From Acidobacteriota bacterium (GTDB lineage: Bacteria > Acidobacteriota > Blastocatellia > RBC074), in the NCBI GenBank assembly GCA_018268995.1, contig JAFDVL010000009.1, positions 987 to 64,986 on the forward strand: a stretch of 64,000 bases of DNA. Reading direction: 5' to 3'. Positions 255-53,234 of this stretch are shown piece by piece. Under the pieces are notes generated by a model. It searched no databases and had not been told where the DNA came from. It was given only the letters and a program-made list of their open reading frames with translations. The position numbers were made by a program, and so were the translations under genes. Positions within the stretch are counted from its first letter, which is position 1; the number at the start of each line of letters is the position of its first letter.

Positions 255-3200
255 TCAGAACTCCAACCGCAAGCCGAGTTGAATCTGGCGTGGGCTGGCG
301 AACTGGGACGTGATGACGCCGAACGCGCCGCGATTGCGTAAATCCATGCCGGGGTCGTTGAATTCCACTCGATTCAGTGCATTGATCATGTCAAAGCTGA
401 AAACAGTCTTCAGCCGCTCGGTGATCTGCGTTTTCTTGCCAATAGACAGATCAAGGTTCCAGCGTGGGAAGCCACGCAGCACACCGCGCCCGTGCCGCGT
501 GTCCTGACTGAGCAGAATCGGGCGGAAGCTGTTGTAAGCGGCTTCCGGGTTAGCAAAGTAATTAAGTCCCGGCCCGCTTCCACCCGCATTTGTCCCGACA
601 CCATTGACGCCAGCAGAGGCATTGACTGCATTGCCGAAATCCAGCTTGCCCTTCGGAATCGCGCCCGACACGATTGCGAAATCGTTTGGGTCGCCGCCAA
701 ACGCTTGCGCGTGTTGTCCGACACTGAGCGGCAGTCCGCTGTTGGCGGTGTAGATGCCGCTGAGATACCAGCCGCCTACAATTCGGTTCAGCACGGTGTT
801 ACCGACGTTCCATCGCTTGCCTTTGCCGATAGGCAATTCGTAACTGAAGAGCGAGTTGAAAACATGCGTTCGGTCAAAGAGCGCCGGGCCGTAATCGAGG
901 TTGAGATCAAAACCGTTGGAGTTACTGCTACCGCCAGAGCCGAAGAGTTCCTGATTCACGCCCAGTTGATCCAGCGCCCGCGAAAGCGTGTAGTTCGCCG
1001 TGAAGCTCATCCCGCTGGAAAAGCGTTTGGTCACGGTGGCGAACAGGGCGTGATAATTCGACAATCCGCCGTTGGTGCGCACCGAAATATTGGTTACCTG
1101 CCGATTGATAATTGGCCCCGCCGGACGCCGGGTATTCAGGAAGTTGAAGAGCGTATTGACTGCTCCGATTTGGAAGTTGCCACCCTGCGCCGCCACGAGC
1201 GCCGCTGTGCATGCTCCTGTGCCACAGAACGTCGCGCCCCTGAATTGATTCTCGAACCAGGGTTGTGCGGCGGGCGACTGACCCGTGCGCAAAGCCGTAG
1301 CGACTGCGTCATACGCTTGTGCGAAGCTCTGGCCTGACGCGCTGTCTTTCATAAACAATGGCACGCTGTTGAGCTGGATCGTTTGTTGCAGATTGCGGCT
1401 CAATCGTCCGGCATAGCCGACCTCAACCAGAAAGTTGCCCGGCAATTCGCGCTGGATCGTGAAATCAATGCTGTGCGAATAGCCGTGCGTGAGGTCTGGG
1501 TCAATGGAGAATTGCAAGGTCTCTGCCGAAGTGTTTGAACCGGGAACAGCGCTCCCGCCGGGGATCACGGGCGATGTGCCTTGGCTCACAATGGGCAGCG
1601 GTACGGTTGTGCCGTCCACGCCAATTCGGAAGGCATTGGTGGGATTGCTGCCCAGCACACAGGTTCCATCGCGGCGCGGCCCTTCGCACGCGCTCGTCTG
1701 CACGAAGGCGACGCCAAAGATCGGCAGGGCAATGATTGCCGTGGCGTTGATGCGATCATACGTGACTGAATAACCGCCGCGTAGCACCGTCTTTTGCTCA
1801 CCCGTGAGTTTGCGTAGCCAGTCAGCGCGGAAGTTCGGTGTCCACGCCGCCGAAAGGCGCGGGCCGAAGTTATTCTTGTCTGTCGGGTAAATGCGATCAC
1901 GCCCTGATTCTCGAATCGGCAACCAACCCAGCGTCGGATTGTAAACGTTGCCTTGCAAAGCGGCTTGGCGGCGCTGTTCCAGATAATCCTTCGACGTAAT
2001 GATTTGCTTCGTCGCTGTGTCAATGATGAAGCTTTGCCTGCCGTTCTTGTCCACGGGCGCGGTTTGCAGCGCGTAGGTCAGCCCCGCCGTGAGAGTCAGA
2101 TTGTTCCGCAGCCGCCAGACATCGTTGCCGTAAAATTCCAGCGAGTGATACTGACTATCAATCTGAATCGGCGTATTCAAGGGCAGCAGGTTCAACTGAC
2201 TGTCGCGCATCGCCAGAATCCCAGCTCTGTCCACAATGCCGAGTGCGCCTGTGTACAAATCATTCCAACGCGCGACATCACCCGTTTGCAGGCAATTGGT
2301 TGTTACACCGCTGCCGCAGGTCGCCGGGCGATTGGCCGCCGGAACGCTGGTCGCAGTCCGTGCGTTCAATTCATAAACCAACGAAGTCAACGAACCTAAT
2401 GCGCTCTTGTCAGTGCGTTCCTGAACGACGGGCATGCGTCGCCACGTGCCGCCGAATTGCACGTTGTGGTTGCGTTTGACCCAGGTCAGATTATCGCCAT
2501 ATTGCCAGACGCGGTCATTCCAGATGCGGTCGCGCGCGTTGATTGTCTCAGCATCGAATCCTTGCGAGAGCGTGCCAGAAGCAACCAACAACGCGCCCGT
2601 CGTGCCTGCAATTTGGGGAATCGGTTTCTGCCGTTTGAGCGCATACCAATTGCGTGCGTATCCGAAGACGAACTCATTGATGAGCGTAGGCGTGAGTTGG
2701 CCTGTGAGCCGGGCGCTGGCATAGCGCGGCTCGACGGGAATGGCGCTCAACGTGGCAATTTTTCCTGATGTATTGCCGGGCAGGATGCCTGCGAAATCTA
2801 CCTGGCCTGGCTCATTGAAACGCTGTCGGGCATAGCGATAAGTTGCGTTGAAATTCCATTTTTCGTTGATGAAGTGATCCAGTCGCGCCACCGCGAAATC
2901 CATGCGCCGCGTGGCATCAGTCGGCCCCGCAAAGCCGGTGGTATTGAGGCCATCACCAAGTGTCGAATCGTTACCCGCTGGAAACTTGTTCCAGAAAGCT
3001 TGGATCACGGGGCTGACGCCGAGAGTGCGCGGATCAAAGGTTTTCAGGTCGAAGCTGTTGATCGTGCCTGCCGCATCGCGGAAGCGCAGGATGCCTTGTT
3101 TGAGAGACGCGGTCGGTACCAGCCGCGCGACGATGGCTGATTGCGGAAAACGCCGTCCTTCGTAATGACCGAAGAGAAATGTCTTGTCGCGCCAGAGCGG

Positions 3201-4106
3201 CCCACCCAAACTGACGCCAAAGCGGTTGTCTTTCAACTCTGGCTGTTTGATGCCGAGGCGATTTGCTTGCCATCGGTTGGCATTCAGATTGTCGTTCTGA
3301 TGATACCAATACGCTGAGCCGTGCAGTTGATTCGTGCCACGCTTAGTCACCATCGAAACCTGTCCGCCTGCCGAACGTCCGAAGGTGGCGTTGGGATTGG
3401 TCGTGCTGACGCGGAATTCCTCAATACTTTCTGCCGGGACAGGAATCATCGGCGACGGCCCTTGGTGGTCAATGGCACCCGGCCCGCCGATCAGGCCATT
3501 GGTGCCCGTTACCAGATCAGTCGCGTCCGCGCCGTCCAGATTAAACGTACTCTGCTCGCTGCGTGCGCCCGCCACCTGACCGCTCGTAACCAAGAGGTTG
3601 CCGCGTGTTGGTTGCACTAGCGGTTGCAAGGAGAGCAACGTCGCCGCACCGCGATTGATGCTGGGCAAACGCAGCAGTTGTTCGCCACCGATGACTGCGC
3701 CGACAGTCGCATCGCTGCGCTGCAAGCCGACGGCGACGCTGGTGGTGATTTGCACAATTTCACTAACACTACCGACTTCCAGCGTCAGGTTGACGGTGTA
3801 CGATTTGGCGATCTCAATCTTGAGCGCTGACACGACTGACTGGCGAAAGCCGCTGGATTTGGCGGTGAGTTTGTACTCCCCCGGCAAGACTTTGCTGAAG
3901 TCATAGCGCCCCGCCGCATCGGTCACGAGTTTCTGGGTTTGGTTGGTAGACTCGTCAAGCAACTCAATATCTGCCCCGGCGATAACCGCGCCGCTGGTGT
4001 CGGTGATAATCCCGGTGATCGTCGCGGTGGTTGACGTCTGGGCTTGTGCCGTCAGCACAACGCCGCACAGCATTCCGATGGCAAACAAAAGCGTGAACTT
4101 GCGCAT
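255..4106 (-). CDS. TonB-dependent receptor-like outer-membrane beta-barrel protein with N-terminal carboxypeptidase-regulatory-like domain (secreted, 1283 aa)
   Basis: Signal peptide MRKFTLLFAIGMLCGVVLTAQA. An N-terminal CarboxypepD_reg-like beta-sandwich (ITGIITDTSGAVIAGADIELLDESTNQTQ...YKLTAKSSGF) is followed by a plug-like region. The long beta-barrel body ends in a terminal aromatic residue (…LGLRLEF), the classic OMP C-terminus. This family is expanded in Acidobacteria. Confidence 0.8.
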   Translation of the reverse strand: MRKFTLLFAIGMLCGVVLTAQAQTSTTATITGIITDTSGAVIAGADIELLDESTNQTQKLVTDAAGRYDFSKVLPGEYKLTAKSSGFRQSVVSALKIEIAKSYTVNLTLEVGSVSEIVQITTSVAVGLQRSDATVGAVIGGEQLLRLPSINRGAATLLSLQPLVQPTRGNLLVTSGQVAGARSEQSTFNLDGADATDLVTGTNGLIGGPGAIDHQGPSPMIPVPAESIEEFRVSTTNPNATFGRSAGGQVSMVTKRGTNQLHGSAYWYHQNDNLNANRWQANRLGIKQPELKDNRFGVSLGGPLWRDKTFLFGHYEGRRFPQSAIVARLVPTASLKQGILRFRDAAGTINSFDLKTFDPRTLGVSPVIQAFWNKFPAGNDSTLGDGLNTTGFAGPTDATRRMDFAVARLDHFINEKWNFNATYRYARQRFNEPGQVDFAGILPGNTSGKIATLSAIPVEPRYASARLTGQLTPTLINEFVFGYARNWYALKRQKPIPQIAGTTGALLVASGTLSQGFDAETINARDRIWNDRVWQYGDNLTWVKRNHNVQFGGTWRRMPVVQERTDKSALGSLTSLVYELNARTATSVPAANRPATCGSGVTTNCLQTGDVARWNDLYTGALGIVDRAGILAMRDSQLNLLPLNTPIQIDSQYHSLEFYGNDVWRLRNNLTLTAGLTYALQTAPVDKNGRQSFIIDTATKQIITSKDYLEQRRQAALQGNVYNPTLGWLPIRESGRDRIYPTDKNNFGPRLSAAWTPNFRADWLRKLTGEQKTVLRGGYSVTYDRINATAIIALPIFGVAFVQTSACEGPRRDGTCVLGSNPTNAFRIGVDGTTVPLPIVSQGTSPVIPGGSAVPGSNTSAETLQFSIDPDLTHGYSHSIDFTIQRELPGNFLVEVGYAGRLSRNLQQTIQLNSVPLFMKDSASGQSFAQAYDAVATALRTGQSPAAQPWFENQFRGATFCGTGACTAALVAAQGGNFQIGAVNTLFNFLNTRRPAGPIINRQVTNISVRTNGGLSNYHALFATVTKRFSSGMSFTANYTLSRALDQLGVNQELFGSGGSSNSNGFDLNLDYGPALFDRTHVFNSLFSYELPIGKGKRWNVGNTVLNRIVGGWYLSGIYTANSGLPLSVGQHAQAFGGDPNDFAIVSGAIPKGKLDFGNAVNASAGVNGVGTNAGGSGPGLNYFANPEAAYNSFRPILLSQDTRHGRGVLRGFPRWNLDLSIGKKTQITERLKTVFSFDMINALNRVEFNDPGMDLRNRGAFGVITSQFASPRQIQLGLRLEF

Positions 4107-4376
4107 GGTTATCGTTCTCCTTACTTGGTTCGTTACTCCGCCGCATCGCGGCGGCTAAATTCAAACTGCCGCTAACGCGGCAAAGAGGCTGAATCGTTAC
4201 TTGATTATTTTCATTCCCATTGATAGACGCGGAATTTGCGGCAAAAACCTCTAACGACCGCGCAAGTTTTTTTTACTGAGTCTTCGGGTTGAGTGGAAGA
4301 GAGAGTATAATTTGCGCCGTCTACGAACAAGCCTGGTAAGACATTACTCTCAAGACACAATCGGCAACAGGAGATT

Positions 4377-4943
4377 ATGGACTCGACTGCAACCTCGGAA
4401 ATGACGCATTTGTTGCTGGCCTGGGGCGATGGCGATCACGCGGCGTTGGATCGGTTGATGCCGCTGGTCTATGCGGAGCTGCGGCGGCTGGCACATCGCT
4501 ATCTGGCGGGCGAACGTGCGGGGCATACGCTGCAAACCACTGACCTCGTCAATGAAGCTTACTTGCGATTGGTGGATCAGAAGCAGATGCAATGGCAGAA
4601 CCGTGCGCAATTCTTTGCGGTGTCGGCGCAATTGATGCGGCGCATTTTGGTGGACTATGCGCGCACGCGCCACGCGGCGCGGCGCGGAGGCACAGCGTTG
4701 CAGGTGACGCTGGAAGAAGCGGCAGAAGTGTCGGTGGATCGCTCCGCCGAGATGGTCGCGCTGGATGATGCACTGACCGAAATGGCGCGGTTTGACGAGC
4801 GCAAGAGCCGCTTGGTAGAGCTACGATTTTTTGGTGGCTTGAGCATTGAGGAAACAGCAGAGGTTTTGCAGGTTTCACCCGGCACCGTGATGCGCGAATG
4901 GACGTTGGCCAAAGCCTGGTTACAACGAGCAATAGGGAAGTGA
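4377..4943 (+). CDS. ECF-type RNA polymerase sigma-70 factor
   Basis: Sigma-70 region 2 (…DLVNEAYLRL…) and region 4 HTH (…FFGGLSIEETAEVLQVSPGTVMREW…). An AGGAG RBS lies 7 nt upstream of the ATG and a TATAAT-like -10 sits near 4305. The stop TGA at 4941-4943 lies 3 nt before the ATG of the downstream kinase, indicating translational coupling. Confidence 0.85.
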   Translation: MDSTATSEMTHLLLAWGDGDHAALDRLMPLVYAELRRLAHRYLAGERAGHTLQTTDLVNEAYLRLVDQKQMQWQNRAQFFAVSAQLMRRILVDYARTRHAARRGGTALQVTLEEAAEVSVDRSAEMVALDDALTEMARFDERKSRLVELRFFGGLSIEETAEVLQVSPGTVMREWTLAKAWLQRAIGK

Positions 4944-4946
4944 CGA

Positions 4947-7878
4947 ATGCACGAGAACGACGAAGCCCTGACGCTTGCAATGGCACCTGCCATGACGCCA
5001 GAACGCTGGCAACACATCGAAACGCTGTTCTATGCCGCGCTCGAACGCGAGCCGCCGCAGCGCGCGGCATTTCTAGCCGAAGCCTGTGCCGACGAGAAAG
5101 CCTTGCGCGAGGAAGTGGAAGCGTTGCTGGCGAAAGCGGAGGTGGAAAGTTCTTTTGACAATCTCGCGGTACAGGTAGCGACAGAAGTACTCGCCACTGA
5201 CAAAGCCGCAACGATTGTGGGGCGAATGATGGGCCATTATCGCTTGCTCGCGCATTTGGGGGCAGGCGGGATGGGCGAAGTCTGGCGTGCCACCGACACC
5301 CACCTGCACCGCGAAGTCGCGCTGAAAGTTTTACCTGCTTCCTATACCAGCGATCCTACGCGGTTGCGTCGCTTTGAGCAGGAAGCCCGCGCCGTTGGGG
5401 CGCTCAATCATCCCAATATTTTGACGGCGTATGACTTTGGCACGCACGAGGGCCATCCCTTCATCGTGATGGAATTGCTGGAAGGCGAAGATTTGCGCGC
5501 TGTCTTGCAGCGCGGCCCGATGTCGCTGCGGCTGGCAGTTGACTATGCCGAGCAGGTGGCGGAGGGCCTAGCGGCGGCGCACGAGAAGGGCATTGTTCAT
5601 CGTGATCTGAAGCCAGAGAATTTATTTGTTACGAACGACGGGCGCGTCAAGATTTTGGATTTTGGTTTAGCCAAGCTGCGACCGCTCCCCTATGTCAAAG
5701 CAGCTCACCAATCCGGGCACAGTGATGGGAACGGTGGCGTATATGTCGCCCGAACAAGTGCTGGGAAAAGACGTGGAGCAACGCTCCGATATTTTCAGCT
5801 TCGGCATCATTCTGTTTGAAATGTTGAGCGGCAAACGCGCGTTCACGGGCGATTCGCACGTCGAAGTGATGAACGCGATTCTGAAAGCAGACCCGCCCGA
5901 ATTGAGCGAAATCAACGCCAGGATTTCGCCCGCGTTAGAAAAAATCGTGCGCCGTTGTTTGGAGAAAAAACCAGAACGCCGCTTTCATTCGGCGCACGAT
6001 CTGGGCTTTGCACTCGAAGCGTTGTCCACGCCCAGCACATCGGGTGCGAATCGCACCGCAGTCGTATCTACGCTCAACACAACATCCATCAAGCGGAGCG
6101 GCTGGCGGGATCGTGGCTGGATGCTGGCCGCAGGGGTGTTGGGCTTGGCGGTTCTCGTGATGAGTTTTGCGTACTTCTTCAAGCGTTCGGCAACTGCACC
6201 GCAGTCCGCGCGGCTGGCGTTTGTGCCGCCAGAGAACCTGACGTTTGACAATGCATCGTGGGACTCTTGTATCGTCTCACCCGATGGACAGAAACTGCTG
6301 TTTACAGGCCGCTCTGCCGATGGCAAACGACAACTCTGGGTGCGCTCGCTCAATGCCTCCGACGCGCAGTTGCTCCCCGGCACAGAAGACCCGATGAGTC
6401 CTTTCTGGTCGCCGGACAGCCGCTCGATTGGATTTGCTTCCAAAGGGAAGCTGCGACGACTTGATCTTAATGGCGGGCGTCCACAGGAACTTGCTGATGC
6501 AGTCAGATTTCATGGCGCAGCCTGGAGTCATACAGGCGTCATCCTCTTTCAACTATCTTCCGGCAGTGATTTGTTCCAAATCCCCGACACAGGTGGTCAG
6601 CCACAGAAAGTGCCGTTGGATTTTAAGGGGTACGTCCCCACGCACCTGAACCCATCTTTCCTGCCCGATGGTCGTCACTTCCTCTATCGCCTGATTGACA
6701 ATGTAAGTGAGCCAAAAGTTTTCGTTGGTTCCCTTGATTCCACAGAGGTGAAACAGGTGCTGTCCGATGGTGGGCCTGCTTTGTACGCGCCGCCCGGCTG
6801 GATCGTCTTTGTGCGCAATGGGGCATTAATGGCGCAGGCGTTTGATGCTGAGAGGCTGGAAATTAAAGGCGAGGCCGTTCCCATCAGCCAATCGAATAAC
6901 AATGCTCTGATCATTGGCGTCCCTTTTTCCGTCTCGACGAATGGCGTGCTGATCTGGCAGGGAGATCGGCGACCGCCTTATCAGCTTGTCTGGTTTGATC
7001 GTGAGGGCAACCAGCGTGGTGTCGTCGGCCCGCCCAGCAATTCGACGAACGGACATCACCCGCGTCTCTCGCCAGATGGAAAAAAAGTTGCTCTCTTTCG
7101 CACCGACCCGCAAGTTCGCAATGACGACATTTGGGTGATTGATCTGGCGCGGAATCTCCCGCTCCGAGTGACGACGAGTCCCTGGTACGATCAACTTCCA
7201 ATCTGGTCACCGGATGGGAGCCAGATCGCCCATTTTAGAGGTGCGCCAGATGCCAGCACGAGTGGTCTTTTCAAAACAGCAACCAGCGGTACGGGAACAG
7301 AAGAGCGTTTAATGAACATCCCGGCTCGTACCACGGATTGGTCGCCGGATGGACGGTTCATTGTTTACACTTTTCCCAAACAAGGGAATCGCTGGGATGT
7401 GTGGTGCCTACCACTTTTTGGCGACCGTCAGGCGTATACGCTACTGGCTACTGAGTTCTCAGAATCCCAGGGACAGTTTTCGCCTGATGGGCGCTGGCTG
7501 GCTTATGTCTCGGATGAATCGGGTAGCTATGAAATCTACGTGCAACCGTTCACGGCAGAAGGGAAACTGGGCGGCGTTAAAGTGCGAGTCTCTCCACAAG
7601 GCGGCAATCATCCTCGTTGGCGACGTGATGGGCGGGAACTATTTTATGTTGCTACAGATGGGCAGATGATGACGGTTGCAGTGAAAACAGGCGGCACTAC
7701 TTTCGAGGCAGATGCTCCTGTTGCCTTATTCAAAACACATCTGATGCCACAACTTTTTAACCCTACGACTGAATATGATGTGACACCGGACGGGCAGCGA
7801 TTTCTGGTTGGGACGCTGGTCGGAAAACCAGCGCCCGTCAGCGTGATTTTGAATTGGGAGGCAGAGGCGAAGAAGTAG
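4947..7878 (+). pseudogene. Ser/Thr protein kinase (ECF-sigma-associated N-terminal domain + Hanks kinase) - TM helix - TolB-like beta-propeller, interrupted by an apparent 1-nt frameshift near 5689-5692. Pseudogene, sequencing error, or programmed shift.
   Basis: ORF 4947..5819 carries kinase motifs ([34 protein letters not shown]) and then runs out of frame. ORF 5692..7878 in the +1 frame resumes exactly with the expected activation-loop/P+1 sequence ([18 protein letters not shown]…[11 protein letters not shown]). It continues through a TM segment (WMLAAGVLGLAVLVMSFAYFF) and TolB-like beta-propeller repeats (SPDG…, WSPDG…). The shift maps to the CCCC-T-ATG homopolymer at about 5686-5692. 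Confidence 0.6.
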
Positions 7879-8023
7879 CATTTACTGTTGGCCCGTTAAT
7901 GATGAATCCTGTGCTGATTTCAGCGGGCAATATTTTACGGTTTACCCGTCACTATGCGTATACTGCTCGGTGACTACTTCATCTTGGTCTACTGATCAGT
8001 TTATCAATCAAGGAGAAATCTTC

Positions 8024-8533
8024 ATGTCTATTGCACAATCTTTACTACCAGAATTCGATCAGGAGATGGCCGGGACTCGGAAAACATTGGAGCGTGTTCC
8101 CGAAGACAACCTGGATTGGCGTCCGCATGAAAAGTCTATGACGCTGGCAGGCTTGGCTACGCACATTGCCAATATGGTGAATTGGGCGACGATCACACTG
8201 ACGCAAGATAGCTTTGATGTCCAGCCGGAGGGCAGCGAACCATACCGTGAAGCGCCAATCAAATCTCGTGCTGAGTTGTTGGAGAAGTTCGATAACGGCT
8301 TGGCCGCTGCGCGCGCCGCCTTGGCTGCAACCAGCGATGAAGCAATGATGAAAGACTGGTCTTTGTTGGGTGGCGGCAAAGTGTTGTTCACCATGCCGCG
8401 CGTTGCCTGTTTACGCGGAATGATCTTCAATCACATCATTCATCACCGTGCGCAACTTTGTGTTTACCTGCGAATGAACGATGTGCCCGTGCCTGCGCTG
8501 TATGGGCCATCGGCAGACGAAGGTGGAATGTAA
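8024..8533 (+). CDS. DinB-family (DinB_2/metal-dependent hydrolase-like four-helix bundle) protein
   Basis: Sequence and size are consistent with the DinB/YfiT-like family (…RPHEKSMTLAGLATHIANMVNW…IIHHRAQLCVYLRMNDVPVPALYGP). An AAGGAG RBS lies 8 nt before the ATG at 8024, so the annotated ORF start at 7970 is probably too long. Confidence 0.6.
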   Translation: MSIAQSLLPEFDQEMAGTRKTLERVPEDNLDWRPHEKSMTLAGLATHIANMVNWATITLTQDSFDVQPEGSEPYREAPIKSRAELLEKFDNGLAAARAALAATSDEAMMKDWSLLGGGKVLFTMPRVACLRGMIFNHIIHHRAQLCVYLRMNDVPVPALYGPSADEGGM

Positions 8534-9383: not shown

Positions 9384-10115
9384 ATGAAGACAGATAATCT
9401 CCATCTGGATCAACGTGGTCTACGGCGAATACAACGCCGCGAATGGTTGAAGATGCTGCCACTCGCTGCGCTGGGCGCAATCGCAGTTCCGAGCGTCAAC
9501 GAAAAGCTCATCAAGCGCGGACTGGCCTTGAGTGATCGCGCTTCGGAAACGTTCTTTCGCCGACAACAGCTCGCGCCCACATTTAGCGACCGTGAGGTGA
9601 CGGCCTTTGATAAATTTCCCATCAATAGCTATTCGACCTATGACGCAGAAGCTGATCTCGCCAATTGGAAGTTGATTGTCGAAGGGATGGTTGCGCGCCC
9701 CGGTGAATACACGCTGGAGCAAATCAAAGCATTGCCGAAGCAGGTGCAAAATGTGAAGCATATTTGCATCGAAGGCTGGAATGTCATTGGCAACTTCGGA
9801 GGTGCGCGATTGGCCGATTTTCTGCAATTGGTCGGCGCTGATCCGCAGGCGCGATTTGTCGAATTCACATGCCTTGATGATTACTTCACTTCGTATGACA
9901 TCGCAAGCTGTCAGCATCCGCAAACATTGCTTTGCTACGAAATGTATGGGCAGCCACTGACCAAAGAACACGGCGCGCCGCTCAGAATTCATACGCCGAT
10001 CAAGCTTGGCTACAAATCCGCCAAGCATCTTTTCACGTTGCGAGTGTCGAATGTCTTAAGCCGTGAAACAGGCTTTTGGGAAGATCAGGGCTATTCGTGG
10101 TACGGCGGGATTTGA
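9384..10115 (+). CDS. Periplasmic molybdopterin-dependent oxidoreductase of the sulfite-oxidase fold (MsrP/YedY-like), Tat-exported
   Basis: Tat motif RRIQRREWLK + hydrophobic stretch. Oxidoreductase_molyb-like core (…KHICIEGWNVIGNFGGARLADF…CYEMYGQPLTKEHGAPLRIHTP…). The start is probably the ATG at 9384 (MKTDNL…), because the ORF-track start at 9336 overlaps a terminator hairpin at about 9327-9362. Confidence 0.7.
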   Translation: MKTDNLHLDQRGLRRIQRREWLKMLPLAALGAIAVPSVNEKLIKRGLALSDRASETFFRRQQLAPTFSDREVTAFDKFPINSYSTYDAEADLANWKLIVEGMVARPGEYTLEQIKALPKQVQNVKHICIEGWNVIGNFGGARLADFLQLVGADPQARFVEFTCLDDYFTSYDIASCQHPQTLLCYEMYGQPLTKEHGAPLRIHTPIKLGYKSAKHLFTLRVSNVLSRETGFWEDQGYSWYGGI

Positions 10116-14425: not shown

Positions 14426-14499
14426 ACAAAACCGGGTGTTTCGAGCGCTATTCTAAACTACGAAGCAAGTCGAGAGAAGGCTGGGAACGGTTTTAGAGA

Positions 14500-14573
14500 G
14501 ACGGCAGAAGCCCGACTGTGAAGGAGGGCGTGGTTTCTGTTACGCCCTCCTTCACAGTCGGGCTTCTGCCGTC
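14500..14573. repeat. Copy 2 (perfect 31-bp stem, 12-nt loop) of the same hairpin repeat family as 10154-10227
   Basis: GACGGCAGAAGCCCGACTGTGAAGGAGGGCG / CGCCCTCCTTCACAGTCGGGCTTCTGCCGTC are exact reverse complements. The element lies in the divergent intergenic region between the CadC-like regulator and the large secreted protein gene. Confidence 0.8.
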
Positions 14574-14784
14574 TGCACGGTTCTTTCTCAAAACACATTA
14601 TTCAGCGACGAATAGACTGAATTATGCTAAGCTGACGCAGTTTTTATAAGCTCCCACAACTTAGCCGGCACGTGCTCGTAACAGAGCAGCAAAAATATTT
14701 CTATCCTCGCCACTTGAATAAAAAGCAAGCGGCACTCCCCCCAGTTGATTTTGTCTGCTTGCGAAATAAAACGAGGAAACTACG

Positions 14785-48923: not shown

Positions 48924-51900
48924 TTACCGCGAAGTGATTTCCGCTTCCGTGGCGGCGCGCCAGAAGCATACGTTCCGATCCCAATCCCCGGCGTAGAGCA
49001 GTTTGCCATCGGGCGAAAAGCCAATGGAATTGTCAGCAATCCAGGAATGATTTTCTTTGAAGACCAGCAACTCTTCGCCCGTCGTCACATCCCAGAGCCG
49101 GACGGTATGATCCTGACTGCCCGTGACCAACCGGCGGTTATCCAGTGAGAACGCCAGGGCGGTAACAACTGCCGCGTGGCCTTTGAAAACGAACAACTCG
49201 CGTCCGGTTTGCGTGTCCCACAACCGCGCCGTCCCCTCACGGCTGCCAGTGGCAAACAGACGTTCATCCGCCGATAACGCAAAGGTTTCAATGCCAGCGT
49301 TGCCACAACGATATTCGCGGCGCATCTGGCCCGTTGCCACGTCCCACACGCTGACGACACTGTTCGTGCTGGCGACGTAGAGGCTTGCGCTGTCCGCCGC
49401 GAAGCGCAAACCCACGATGCCGCCGAAGTACACCTTCATTGAGTTGCGTGCTTTGCCGGTGCGCGGCTCCCAGAGTTGCACAGTGTTGTGAATGCTCACG
49501 GCCAGCGTGCCATCCGGCGCAAAGCTGAGCGCCGTCGCGGGGGTTGGCAAGGGAAGGGTGAAGACCTCTTTGCCAGTGGCCGCTTCCCAGACTTTGACTT
49601 CCACGGCATTGCCCGTGGCGTACCATTGGCTGTCGGCGGAAACGGCGACGTGGAAATTCGTAGGGCTGTTTGGCGGCAAAGGCGTGCGGTGGCGCAACGT
49701 CGTGATTTCCTGTCGCGTCGCCATATCCCATACCGTTACGGATTGCTCTTTCTGCCCCGTCAACAACCGCTTGCCATCCGGGGTCAACACGATGTGCGCA
49801 AAGGCTCTCATCTTTCTCGGATCGTACAGCGAATCGTCGGCGCGCTCACGTGTCAAATCCCAGAGCTTGACGGTGTGATCTGCCGCGCCGGACGCGAGCC
49901 GTTGACCGTCGGGCGAAACAGCCAGCGCGAAAATCACATTGCCGTGCCCGCGCTGCACCGCTTTGTCTTTCCAGGTTGTGGTGTCTAAAAACGTGATTTC
50001 GGATTGCTTTGCTGCGTCCTCTCCACCGATGATCAGCGTGCGGCTGTCGGGTGTGAAGGCCAGCCGACGGCCTCTGTTTTCGAGCTGCATAAGCTGTTTG
50101 CCTGTTGCCGCTTCCCACGCGGTCGTGAGGCCATTCCCTGACACCACGACGATGCGCCCATCGGGAGAAAACAACGCGTTTTGCGGCTTCGCCCACACGC
50201 CTCCCAGTGCGAACAATTCGGTGCCGGAAGCCAGGTCCCAGAGATAGACGTTGCGTTTATGATCTGCGCTGCCGGTGATGAACCGCTGACCATCCGGCGC
50301 GATGGCAACGGTAAAGATGCGCGGCAGGTCTTTTTTGATGCGATAGATTTCGCGCCCGCTCGGCAACTCCAACAGGCTGATCGAACCATCACTAAACCCA
50401 ACGATCATCTGATTGCCATTGGGAGTGAAAGCAAAACAACTGAGGCCGCCTTGCAGGTCTGCGATCTTGTACAGTTCGGCTCCCGTGGTCAGCGAAACGA
50501 CACGAATGACTTTGTCGCCGAGACGGGCCATCGCCAACACCTTGCGATCCTGCGTCAGCGCCGTGATCCCCGCGCTCACAGCCGGGTATTCATATCGTCG
50601 CAGCACCTCGCCCGTGGCCGCGTCGCGCCAGACGACTTCCGTGCCAAGCGAAGCAGGGCCGACATCGCTTTGTTGCGCTGCTACGGTCAGAAGCTGCGTG
50701 CTGTCGAGGGAAAACGCGGTCAGGTGGATAAGTCCCGGAAGAGCAAACGAACGTTCTTCCTGATGGCTGAGCCTCCACAGGTAATACCACTCAAAGCCGC
50801 GATAATCCGGCGCGTTCGGTTGCGGCAAATAGGGCGTGAGCAGTTCGCGCATCCGTTCGATGTTCGCGTTGTTCCACGCCTGATGTGCCAAGCCCATCCG
50901 CGAAGTATAGAGCAATTGCCGATTCGAGAGTTCCTGTGTTTCGGCACGCTGGCGTTGCGTTTGCGCGACGTTACGTTCTGCTTCTGCGGTGAGTCGTTGC
51001 GTCTCAGCCACAGCGCGTTGTTGATTGGCTTCAGCCCGCGCGGCTTCGGCTTGCCGTCGGCGTTGCTCAGCAGTAGTCAATGCGTTTTCAGCGCGCGTTC
51101 GTTGCGCCTCGACTTCGGCCAACGCTTGTTCGGCCAAGCGGCGTTGCTCATCGGCAACGGCTAAAGCTTGTTCGGCACGAATTCTTTGCGCTTCGGCTTT
51201 GGCCTGTTCGGCGCGTGCGATTTGGGCTTGTCGTGACGTAGCTCCGATGCCGCCGACCAACGACAATAAAATCAAGGCAGCAGCGGCGACGGGAACTTTG
51301 TAGCGGCGTACATATTTCACTGCGCGATAGGCCAATGTGCCTTTACGCGCGAGTGTAGGCAAGCCAGCTAAGTAGCGTTGAATGTCAGTGGAGAATTGCT
51401 CGACTGAAGCGTATCGCTCATTTGGTTCTTTGCGTAGCGCCATCAGGACAATGCTGTCGAGATCACCACGAAGTTGCGACGGAGAGAAGGAGAGAGGGAG
51501 TGACGGAGTGACGGAGCGAGAGGACGGATCACCTTGTCCTGTTGTCGCTCTTTCCCACTGTCCCTCTTTCTCTCCTTCTTGCGCGCTTGGTCGCGTCGGT
51601 TCCTGTTCGCAGATTGCTTTTGCCAATTCGCCGAAGGTGTTGGTGGTGAGTTGATACGGGCTGCGTCCGGTGAGTAATTCATACAACACAACGCCCAACG
51701 AATACACATCGCTAGTGGTCGTGAGCGTTTCGTTGCGCACTTGTTCAGGACTGGCGTAGGCGGGCGTCATTGGAGTTTGGCCTGCCTGCGTTTGGAAAGA
51801 TTGCATCAGGTCGGGTTGCAGCAGTTTGGCGATGCCGAAATCCAATAGCTTTGGCGTGCCATCGGCAGTCACGAGAATGTTTGCAGGCTTCAGGTCGCGG

Positions 51901-52508
51901 TGAATGATAAGGTGTTGATGGGCGTATTGCACTGCCGAACAAACTTGACGGAAAAGCTGCAATCGTTCACGCAGGGAAAGCTGTTGTTGCTGGCAATAGA
52001 CATCAATCGGCACGCCTTCGATGTATTCCATCACAAGGTACGGTTGTCCGCTGTCGGTCGTACCGCCGTCGAGCAGGCGCGCAATGTTGGGATGATTCAG
52101 GCTGGCCAGAATCTGCCGCTCGTGGCGTAGTCGGTGTGCGATGTCAGGATGTTCCGTTTTCAGCAGTTTGATGGCGACCTGTTGCTGATATTGCTCGTCA
52201 GCGCGTTCTGCTAACCAGACTGTCCCCATTCCGCCTTGTGCCAGTTCGCGGAGCAATTGGTAAGCGCCGATGCGCTGTGTCGTGAGAGTCACAGAATCTT
52301 CTAGGGCTTGTTTCGCGGAAATTGGAGCTGCTTGTGATCCCAGAAAACCGTTGGCTTGACGGTGTGCAACGAGCAGGGAAGTTACTTCGCGTTGTAATGA
52401 TTCATCGTCCCGGCAGGCTTGCGCCAGAAATGCGGTTTGCTCCGTTTCAGGCAATTCCAGCATTTCATCAAAGATGCGTTCGATTTCGCGCCAACGATGA
52501 TTTTCCAT
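48924..52508 (-). CDS. Ser/Thr protein kinase (ECF-sigma-associated N-terminal domain + Hanks kinase) - TM - coiled-coil - WD40/beta-propeller repeats (1194 aa)
   Basis: The N-terminal conserved domain (MENHRWREIERIFDEMLELPETEQTAFLAQAC…) is shared with ORF 4947. Kinase motifs (GGMGTVWLA, VAIKLL, HRDLKPANIL, DFGIAKL, …ASPEQ). TM (AALILLSLVGGIGA). A Q/A/E/R-rich coiled coil is followed by many WD40-like repeats (…LWDL…, …VWD…). Confidence 0.85.
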   Translation of the reverse strand: MENHRWREIERIFDEMLELPETEQTAFLAQACRDDESLQREVTSLLVAHRQANGFLGSQAAPISAKQALEDSVTLTTQRIGAYQLLRELAQGGMGTVWLAERADEQYQQQVAIKLLKTEHPDIAHRLRHERQILASLNHPNIARLLDGGTTDSGQPYLVMEYIEGVPIDVYCQQQQLSLRERLQLFRQVCSAVQYAHQHLIIHRDLKPANILVTADGTPKLLDFGIAKLLQPDLMQSFQTQAGQTPMTPAYASPEQVRNETLTTTSDVYSLGVVLYELLTGRSPYQLTTNTFGELAKAICEQEPTRPSAQEGEKEGQWERATTGQGDPSSRSVTPSLPLSFSPSQLRGDLDSIVLMALRKEPNERYASVEQFSTDIQRYLAGLPTLARKGTLAYRAVKYVRRYKVPVAAAALILLSLVGGIGATSRQAQIARAEQAKAEAQRIRAEQALAVADEQRRLAEQALAEVEAQRTRAENALTTAEQRRRQAEAARAEANQQRAVAETQRLTAEAERNVAQTQRQRAETQELSNRQLLYTSRMGLAHQAWNNANIERMRELLTPYLPQPNAPDYRGFEWYYLWRLSHQEERSFALPGLIHLTAFSLDSTQLLTVAAQQSDVGPASLGTEVVWRDAATGEVLRRYEYPAVSAGITALTQDRKVLAMARLGDKVIRVVSLTTGAELYKIADLQGGLSCFAFTPNGNQMIVGFSDGSISLLELPSGREIYRIKKDLPRIFTVAIAPDGQRFITGSADHKRNVYLWDLASGTELFALGGVWAKPQNALFSPDGRIVVVSGNGLTTAWEAATGKQLMQLENRGRRLAFTPDSRTLIIGGEDAAKQSEITFLDTTTWKDKAVQRGHGNVIFALAVSPDGQRLASGAADHTVKLWDLTRERADDSLYDPRKMRAFAHIVLTPDGKRLLTGQKEQSVTVWDMATRQEITTLRHRTPLPPNSPTNFHVAVSADSQWYATGNAVEVKVWEAATGKEVFTLPLPTPATALSFAPDGTLAVSIHNTVQLWEPRTGKARNSMKVYFGGIVGLRFAADSASLYVASTNSVVSVWDVATGQMRREYRCGNAGIETFALSADERLFATGSREGTARLWDTQTGRELFVFKGHAAVVTALAFSLDNRRLVTGSQDHTVRLWDVTTGEELLVFKENHSWIADNSIGFSPDGKLLYAGDWDRNVCFWRAATEAEITSR

Positions 52509-52531
52509 AAAATTTCCCTTCCCTTTGTAGA

Positions 52532-52656
52532 CGCGAAGCGCCTGGGAGCGCAGGCATCCTTGCCTGCTTGTATTCGTACGCTGTAATTTTTCTCGTCGCG
52601 AATTTGCTCTCCAAGTCTGAAGTAGGCAGGGATGCCTGCGCTCCCAGGGCTACGCG
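52532..52656. repeat. Long imperfect hairpin (~30-bp stem, ~54-nt loop) between the ECF sigma gene and the downstream WD40 kinase gene
   Basis: Left arm CGCGAAGCGCCTGGGAGCGCAGGCATCCTTGCCTGC (52532-52567). Right arm GTAGGCAGGGATGCCTGCGCTCCCAGGGCTACGCG (52622-52656). The reverse complement matches with 3 mismatches and 1 indel. Confidence 0.6.
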
Positions 52657-52667
52657 CTCTCAAGCGG

Positions 52668-53234
52668 TCATTTCCTATTCAACTCTCGGTATAACCACGC
52701 TTGTGCCAATCGCCATTCGCGGGCAATTGTGCGCGGTGATACGCCCAGAACTTCGGCAGTTTCTTCGACGCTCAAGCCACCGAAAAAACGTAGCTCGACG
52801 ATGCGGCTGCGACGTTCATCGAATTGGGCTAAGGTCTTCAGTGCATCATCCAGTGCGATCAATTCCGGGCTTTGCTGCCACGCCATTTCTTCTGCTGCAC
52901 CAAGCGTGACGCGGATGGCTTTGCCGCCGTGTTTTTGCGCCTGTTGCTTGCGGGCTTCGTCTACTAGAATGCGCCGCATCAAAATAGCCGCGACGCCAAA
53001 GAAATGTGCGCGGCTTTGCCAACTGACGTTGCGCCAATCAATCAGGTGCAACCAGGCTTCATTGACAAGTGCAGTGGCTTGCAGCAAATGATCCGGCGTT
53101 TGCTGGTGCATGTAGTGTGCGGCCAGGCGATGGAGTTCAGCTTGCACCTGCGGCAGCAATTTTTCCAGTGCCGCTTGATCCCCCGCGTTCCAGGCTTGCA
53201 ACAACTGCGTTACGTTGGAGTTGGTGACAACCAT
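52668..53234 (-). CDS. ECF-type RNA polymerase sigma factor (paralog of 4377..4943)
   Basis: …ALVNEAWLHLIDWRNVSWQSRAHFFGVAAILMRRILVDEAR… / …FFGGLSVEETAEVLGVSPRTIAREW… These blocks are alignable with ORF 4377. Confidence 0.85.
   Translation of the reverse strand: MVVTNSNVTQLLQAWNAGDQAALEKLLPQVQAELHRLAAHYMHQQTPDHLLQATALVNEAWLHLIDWRNVSWQSRAHFFGVAAILMRRILVDEARKQQAQKHGGKAIRVTLGAAEEMAWQQSPELIALDDALKTLAQFDERRSRIVELRFFGGLSVEETAEVLGVSPRTIAREWRLAQAWLYRELNRK

Follow-up and report, generated by a model that had tools for sequence, protein, structure and literature searches.

How does a kinase gene lying immediately downstream of a sigma factor gene come to be divided between two reading frames, and what does this mean for the regulatory module that the two genes would form? 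The question is raised by a 64,000 nt stretch of DNA from an Acidobacteriota bacterium (hereafter "the window": positions 987–64,986 of contig JAFDVL010000009.1, assembly GCA_018268995.1), in which a gene for an extracytoplasmic function (ECF) sigma factor is followed by a gene for a membrane-anchored Ser/Thr kinase with a periplasmic sensor. An earlier note, made from the nucleotide sequence alone, described this pair and reported an apparent frameshift in the kinase activation loop. It placed the shift at a CCCC-T run near position 5689, and left its origin as either a real inactivating mutation or an assembly error. Our reading, to which we assign a probability of about 0.85, is that the locus is an ECF43-type two-gene module whose kinase has been inactivated by a recent, strain-level deletion of 26 bp. 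Unless stated otherwise, features lie on the plus strand of the window.

One kinase domain in two reading frames

Two overlapping open reading frames (ORFs) cover the kinase gene. ORF A (4947–5819; 290 aa) spans positions 1–147 of the Pkinase profile, while ORF B, in the +1 frame, is open from 5671 and runs from an ATG at 5692 to 7878 (728 aa), spanning Pkinase positions 146–253 and a PD40 region. A single kinase domain is thus divided over two frames, with the break falling after the motif DFGLAKL. The +1 frame jump between this motif and the downstream kinase motif, as first described, is real in the sequence.

The gene can be broken down into (i) codons 1–250 in the native frame (4947–5696), encoding an N-terminal domain (about 4995–5150), the N-lobe and the HRDLKPEN motif, (ii) an out-of-frame tail of 40 nonsense codons followed by TGA (5697–5819), and (iii) codons 260–985 in the +1 frame (5698–7878), encoding the remainder of the activation loop, the SPE motif, the C-lobe (to about 6003), a transmembrane (TM) helix and the sensor (PD40, E 2e-28). 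The N-terminal domain, the N-lobe and the HRD and DFG motifs are still encoded by ORF A, whereas everything in the activation segment past DFG+7, along with the P+1 loop, SPE and the C-lobe scaffold as a whole, is lost from it. The NCBI record for ORF B, MBS1807114.1, starts from ATG 5692 and is named as a 728-aa "PD40 domain-containing protein". No Shine–Dalgarno (SD) motif was seen ahead of this ATG on reading the sequence. An exact look-up of the 728-aa product returned no record, and the 290-aa and 701-aa products were found only in one Logan contig (L002, described below).

The frame break is a 26-nt deletion

An exact look-up of the sigma protein yielded six Logan contigs, which were aligned to the window. 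Three contigs of another haplotype (L001, L003 and L005) carry 26 extra nucleotides, TCGGCGGGTTCGGATGTCCCGACCCA, exactly at window position 5696/5697. These encode activation-loop residues SAGSDVPTQ. Putting the 26 nt back into the window produces a single 985-codon ORF whose product is 100% identical to a 985-aa NCBI protein, P0123, found in the 90% cluster of ORF B. P0123 is encoded on contig JBGAMQ010000056.1 (L089) of a sister metagenome-assembled genome (MAG), GCA_044222815.1. The sister contig is 99.76–99.81% identical to the window across 17.9 kb, and between window positions 4558 and 9150 the 26 nt constitute the sole difference. Kinase codons 1–250 of the window match residues 1–250 of the intact P0123 at 100% identity. 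The restored kinase carries all Hanks catalytic motifs (GxGxxG, VAxK, HRDLKxxN, DFG and the S/APE class, here SPE), and its residues 94–365 match PknA and PknB at E about 1e-57. A continuous frame through these motifs is absent from the window and present in L089/P0123.

The comparison with related loci, which the earlier note had recommended, thus moves the lesion away from the homopolymer: L089, the Logan contigs and the ortholog P0001 show a 26-nt deletion rather than an indel at CCCC. A one-base slip in the run itself (5687–5690; 5687–5691 with the T) is ruled out by the 26-nt block at 5696/5697, and the intact product is 985 aa long, not the 975 aa that had been expected from read-through. 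It is the loss of 26 nt that places the downstream sequence in the +1 frame.

Which of the two alleles came first? The allele with the 26 nt is the ancestral one and the deletion in the window derived, on the evidence of (i) the intact sister allele, (ii) the loop of P0001 (85% identical; Blastocatellia MAG VAR_34), which matches the restored loop in length and in the residues SAGSDVPTQ, and (iii) the loop length and T-Q-K core common to most of the 40 best homologs. The converse is that the other genomes gained the 26 nt by insertion and that the window retains the original state. It draws on the formal symmetry of an indel only, whereas the window state breaks the frame, SAGSDVPTQ is identical in the 85% ortholog, and loop length and core are conserved across the family; we give this converse next to no credence.

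A more practical concern is that the window itself is wrong, through a CCCC miscall or a mis-join, and that the true genome has a continuous kinase ORF. The source is a MAG, a CCCC run is found 6 nt before the junction, and dropping one C also opens a frame, of 976 aa. However, the gap to the intact allele is a block of 26 nt and not one base, and there is no flanking repeat or microhomology to mislead an assembler (microhomology and direct repeats at 5696/5697: 0/0). Moreover, two Logan contigs, L002 (SRR24111707; 6336 nt) and L006 (SRR23782932; 1385 nt), match the window base for base through the junction (100% identity). With the exact junction recurring in Logan assemblies from two further sequencing runs, it is very unlikely to be an error of assembly or of homopolymer calling. 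Of the two origins initially entertained, the real inactivating mutation is upheld and the assembly error is not.

The third possibility is that the frame change is functional: either ribosomes shift by +1 through slippage of tRNA-Pro at CCC-U (5688–5691), giving a loop that is 9 residues shorter, or the two parts function as individual polypeptides. In favor of recoding, a +1 shift at CCC/T would produce a DFG-to-SPE segment of 32 residues, near the 33 of homolog P0003; in favor of a split, ORF B has its in-frame ATG at 5692. Against recoding, all 38 of the 38 kinase-domain homologs (among 40 inspected) are in frame, and no ortholog or paralog is arranged in this way. The window allele is one event from the intact allele with no compensating change, and neither a stop or rare codon in the A site nor an upstream SD-like stimulator was seen. 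The hallmarks of programmed ribosomal frameshifting, a conserved shift and a slippery site with a stimulator, are thus lacking. As for a split, no SD motif precedes ATG 5692, and a divided Hanks kinase whose first half has no C-lobe scaffold is implausible. We regard recoding or a functional split as extremely improbable.

The deletion is recent, to judge from the state of its surroundings: ORF B is still open, and the sister allele is otherwise identical. The ORF B frame contains 0 stops in 728 codons, versus 29 stops in each of the other frames (random chance about 1e-13). The locus combines what is expected of a recent, strain-specific pseudogene, namely an otherwise identical intact allele, a frame-disrupting lesion and a second and third occurrence of the junction, in L002 and L006. 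When JGI metagenome contigs were scanned with a gapped pattern, neither allele gave a hit. Hairpin-mediated deletion was considered as a route and rejected: the folding energy of the deleted segment, -6.4 kcal/mol (z -0.27), does not stand out from that of shuffled sequences.

One further Logan contig, L004 (SRR28480386; window 3270–5680), is 100% window-type to about position 5400 and then switches to the L001-type haplotype, ending 16 nt before the deletion site. Either recombination or a chimera in the k-mer graph accounts for L004, which is a hint that its sample contains both haplotypes.

The sigma factor resembles members of ECF43

The gene upstream of the kinase (4377–4943) encodes a 188-aa protein with the two-domain (sigma2 plus sigma4) architecture of ECF sigma factors. 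It matches PF07638 (E 1.2e-53) and Sigma70_r4_2 in a Pfam profile search, and TIGR02999 of NCBIfam at 217 bits against a cut-off of 126. These profile matches agree with the identity first proposed for the pair. Region 2.2 of the translated protein reads LQTTDLVNEAYLRL, with the motif LQTTDLV (Q53, T54, T55, D56). The acidic DAED motif of other ECF sigma factors is replaced here by QTTD, with candidate phospho-acceptor threonines and one acidic residue, D56, kept.

Members of group ECF43 are distinguished by an adjacent Hanks-type kinase, a QTTA-type motif with a phosphorylated Thr in place of DAED, and the absence of an anti-sigma factor; tested cases are EcfP/PknT and EcfK/PknS (PMC13147305, PMC8999054, PMC7826278). 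In the window, the Hanks-type kinase gene begins 3 nt after the sigma gene ends. The neighbors of the sigma gene are a gene for an outer-membrane protein (OMP) and the kinase gene, and the N-terminal domain of the kinase has no Pfam hit or fold match. By motif and gene context, the window pair looks like an ECF43 pair.

The junction of the two genes (4934–4946) consists of an SD-like AGGGAAG (4934–4940), the sigma stop codon TGA (4941–4943) and a 3-nt spacer; the kinase ATG follows at 4947, 7 nt downstream of the SD-like site. This is the separation originally reported. Given the 3-nt gap and the SD-like site, the two genes may reasonably be taken to be translationally coupled. The sigma-then-kinase order recurs in L007, in L089 and in 9 more distant loci. 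A scan of positions 4000–8100 for promoters and terminators found no sigma-70-like promoter, and terminator-like sites were near expectation.

The junction is also kept in L009 (Blastocatellia VAR_78, JANPFS010000315.1), ahead of duplicated kinase genes. There, two tandem kinase-PD40 genes each lie behind the last 24–36 codons of a sigma gene only (L009 positions 1705–1812 and 5782–5853). It seems that the duplicated unit comprised the kinase cassette, the sigma 3' end and the junction.

A proposed mechanism, and what the deletion would do to it

By analogy with the characterized pairs, we propose that (i) the periplasmic double-propeller sensor controls the membrane Hanks-type Ser/Thr kinase, (ii) the kinase would activate the presumably co-transcribed sigma factor by phosphorylating T54 or T55 of QTTD, and perhaps threonines of the linker, and (iii) the phosphate on the sigma factor would supply the negative charge for binding core RNA polymerase. 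In the window strain, the 26-bp deletion in the activation-loop coding sequence would, through its frameshift, leave a dead kinase and a fresh pseudogene, and no clear ribosome-binding site precedes the part that encodes the remaining kinase sequence, TM helix and sensor. We infer from this loss of function that the sigma factor should stay inactive in the window strain, unless another kinase cross-phosphorylates it; the window holds at least one paralogous pair.

A close parallel is EcfK/PknS of Xanthomonas citri (PDB 9EED; PMC13147305), in which an ECF sigma factor is likewise encoded beside a transmembrane Hanks kinase. In PknS, the kinase domain is preceded by an N-terminal helical stretch of about 80 residues, and there are, as here, one TM helix and a periplasmic sensor made of repeats. 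EcfK carries Thr in place of the acidic motif of region 2.2, with QATE corresponding to QTTD here and one acidic residue in each. The two systems differ in the sensor (TPR in PknS, a tandem PD40 double propeller in the window kinase), in the host (gammaproteobacterial there, acidobacterial and Blastocatellia-like here) and in gene context: the T6SS (type VI secretion system) context of EcfK/PknS is absent here, where the neighbor is a large outer-membrane barrel protein. Unlike PknS, the window kinase is inactivated by the 26-bp deletion. The mechanism that we propose is also that of EcfP/PknT of Vibrio parahaemolyticus (ECF43; Iyer et al. 2020, summarized in PMC8999054), where the sigma factor, having no DAED in region 2.2, is intrinsically inactive until the adjacent kinase phosphorylates a Thr. 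The corresponding motif in EcfP is STTA, as opposed to QTTD with its retained D56 in the window sigma factor.

Several points weigh against our reading. Firstly, the ECF43 placement is a probable one, drawn from motif and gene context. Secondly, with D56 retained, the window sigma factor is perhaps not fully dependent on phosphorylation; one acidic residue is kept in about 16% of ECF43 members, and the EcfK variant T51A is still functional (PMC13147305). Thirdly, the in-frame ATG of ORF B could allow some translation of the distal part. Fourthly, the evidence for the deletion consists of assembled contigs, and the Logan runs may overlap the reads of the MAG itself. Finally, L089 is an imperfect reference that is either noisy or decayed, with indels in its sigma gene and a fragmented upstream gene. 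Judged from the alignments, however, a 26-nt block on which Illumina-derived contigs and an ortholog agree cannot be noise, despite these flaws of L089.

Possible decay in the sister MAG

The flaws of L089 are worth describing in their own right. At L089 positions 9430–9997, corresponding to the sigma gene (window 4377–4943), there is a +2 insertion after window position 4480, a -1 deletion at window position 4556 and a cluster of 6 substitutions. The changes look like local noise; they could be real decay, that is, an independent lesion of the same module. Gene conversion from the paralogous sigma gene of the window was rejected as their source, as the changed positions do not match the paralog.

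The upstream gene is affected too. In the window, only its 3' end is present (11–118), and a tblastn search shows 86% identity between the peptide encoded at 11–115 and the C-terminal 35 residues of the kinase protein. The earlier note had taken the kinase to be one of two paralogs on this basis, and had asked whether the upstream copy is intact. The tblastn result and the gene calls of L089 show that it is not a kinase: the upstream gene encodes a regulator with a winged-helix Trans_reg_C domain and a PD40 sensor, sharing with the kinase the sensor domain alone (about 45% overall). Nor is it intact in L089, where in-frame stops (at least 5) and several shifts of frame break it up (positions 2916–5171). 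In the L001-type strain the gene is missing, and a TPR gene occupies its position.

Might the module be undergoing lineage-wide dismantling, with the kinase deletion, the sigma indels of the sister and the decay of the upstream gene as independent losses under relaxed or negative selection? The +2 and -1 indels and the at least 5 stops and frame changes in L089 are consistent with this, as is the mosaicism of the adjacent OMP gene between strains (described below). But the L089 sigma lesions and substitutions are packed into 112 nt, as local consensus noise would be, and come from a single source, and all Logan contigs encode an intact 188-aa sigma factor. We consider lineage-wide dismantling quite improbable, and favor a single strain-level deletion in the kinase gene.

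An N-terminal domain associated with sigma gene adjacency

The kinase begins with a segment of about 50 residues and three helices, characterized by the motif W-x2-I-E-x-L-F/Y ... R-x-A-F-L ... C ... L-R-x-E-V-E-x-L-L. An AlphaFold2 (AF2) model of residues 1–96 places helices at 18–32, 36–46 and from 51 onward, with a predicted local distance difference test (pLDDT) score of about 85 at residues 20–60. The same motif occurs in a second kinase of the window (48924–52508, minus strand; 38% identity over 55 aa, E 2.5e-8), and residues 17–63 align with residues 5–51 of PknS (PDB 9EED). The PknS extension has 83 residues, and its function is unknown according to its authors (PMC13147305).

Is the domain linked to the sigma factor? 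In a survey of 93 kinase domains from 80 related loci, it was present in 14 of 93 and absent from 79 of 93. Domain and adjacent sigma gene occurred together in 9 cases, the domain alone in 5, the sigma gene alone in 1 and neither in 78 (Fisher p 2e-8). Two of the five domain-only kinases adjoin sigma remnants, and one lies at a contig edge. The suggestion that the domain is ECF-associated, and common to the kinase at 48924, is thereby borne out. A Pfam scan over 18 members of the domain gave no consistent family, and the best Foldseek match of the model to the PDB, at E 3.3, is meaningless; with no fold match, the idea of an anti-sigma domain is unsupported.

It is conceivable, if unlikely, that the N-terminal domain is a module for docking or holding the sigma factor, one that ECF43-coupled kinases would share across bacteria as distant as Acidobacteria and Xanthomonas. 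On this view ORF A may still bind, and perhaps sequester, the sigma factor without phosphorylating it, which would make the window allele a dominant "off" allele and not a simple null. Alongside this, the sigma indels of the sister and the decayed upstream paralog may reflect independent losses affecting the module in this lineage.

The sensor and its membrane anchor

The restored kinase has a single TM helix at residues 399–421 (hydropathy peak; about 6115–6183), followed by a predicted periplasmic tandem PD40 double propeller (about 6220–7875). The AF2 model of the sensor (552 residues) has a pLDDT of 89.8 and is all-beta, with about 44 strands. The closest folds found by Foldseek are those of double propellers, of tricorn and of TolB (E about 1e-12 to 1e-15). 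The initial description of a kinase, a TM helix and a PD40 propeller is accurate; its designation of the propeller as TolB-like is imprecise, since TIGR02800 (TolB) scores the sensor at 108 bits, far below the cut-off of 343, and the sensor is a tandem double propeller and no ortholog of TolB.

Likeness to TolB and tricorn protease lies in the PD40-type blades, with Foldseek matches to 1crz, 2hqs, 4pwz and 1k32 at E about 1e-12, and, for tricorn, precomputed Pfam hits to Tricorn_N and Tricorn_2nd in the family of the window kinase. In contrast to TolB, with its N-terminal domain and single six-bladed propeller, the window sensor has no TolB N-terminal domain and consists of two tandem propellers anchored to a kinase.

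The neighboring outer-membrane protein gene

Divergent from the sigma/kinase pair, and its syntenic neighbor, lies a gene (255–4106, minus strand) for an OMP of 1283 aa with a CarboxypepD_reg domain and a beta-barrel, as in the gene calls of L001, L007 and L089. It is a candidate member of the regulon.

Relative to L001, L003 and L005, identity is 74–77% in the barrel part of this gene but reaches 99–100% in the gene's 5' end, in the intergenic region and in the sigma gene. On these identities, the pattern suggests recombination or diversifying exchange of a surface protein.

The same type of sensor is found on other regulators. In L010 (Acidobacteriota GFS_12827; positions 1439–8016), an 80% ortholog of the OMP lies divergently beside P0012, which consists of a Trans_reg_C winged helix, a TM helix and PD40 repeats, and whose sensor is 78–87% identical to that of the kinase. 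The arrangement suggests that sensor and OMP work together. P0012 and P0046 are CadC-like one-component regulators: they share the periplasmic sensor (78–87% identity, and in L010 the position beside the OMP ortholog), and differ in having a DNA-binding winged helix as output in place of the kinase and sigma factor.

A second pair, and an inverted repeat

The window contains a second, intact ECF43-like pair on the minus strand (48924–53234), recognized by sequence comparison. Its sigma factor (52668–53234) is 57% identical to the first and carries the motif LQATALV. Its kinase (48924–52508; 1194 aa) combines the N-terminal domain of the first kinase with a coiled coil and a WD40 sensor, and the two genes are separated by 159 nt, compared with 3 nt in the first pair.

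Elsewhere in the window, an intergenic perfect inverted repeat of 33 nt with a 10-nt spacer lies at 14499–14574. In L089, the 10-nt loop of this repeat is reverse-complemented, with small indels at the edges of the arms. This reflects either a flip of the hairpin loop or ambiguity of orientation in the assembler.

Implications

The locus is a known kind of system with a new combination of sensor and output, and its disruption is ordinary strain-level decay in a large paralogous family. For annotation, MBS1807114.1 corresponds to the 3' portion of a kinase gene that has been disrupted, and the locus merits a pseudogene flag that records the 26-bp lesion. The sigma-linked N-terminal domain is the only mildly novel lead that the locus offers: its association with the sigma gene, and its likeness to the PknS extension, make it a modest, testable lead for work on ECF43. 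Finally, the intact and kinase-null forms of the gene are near-isogenic natural alleles in an uncultured acidobacterium, and could help in defining the regulon of the sigma factor from metatranscriptomes.

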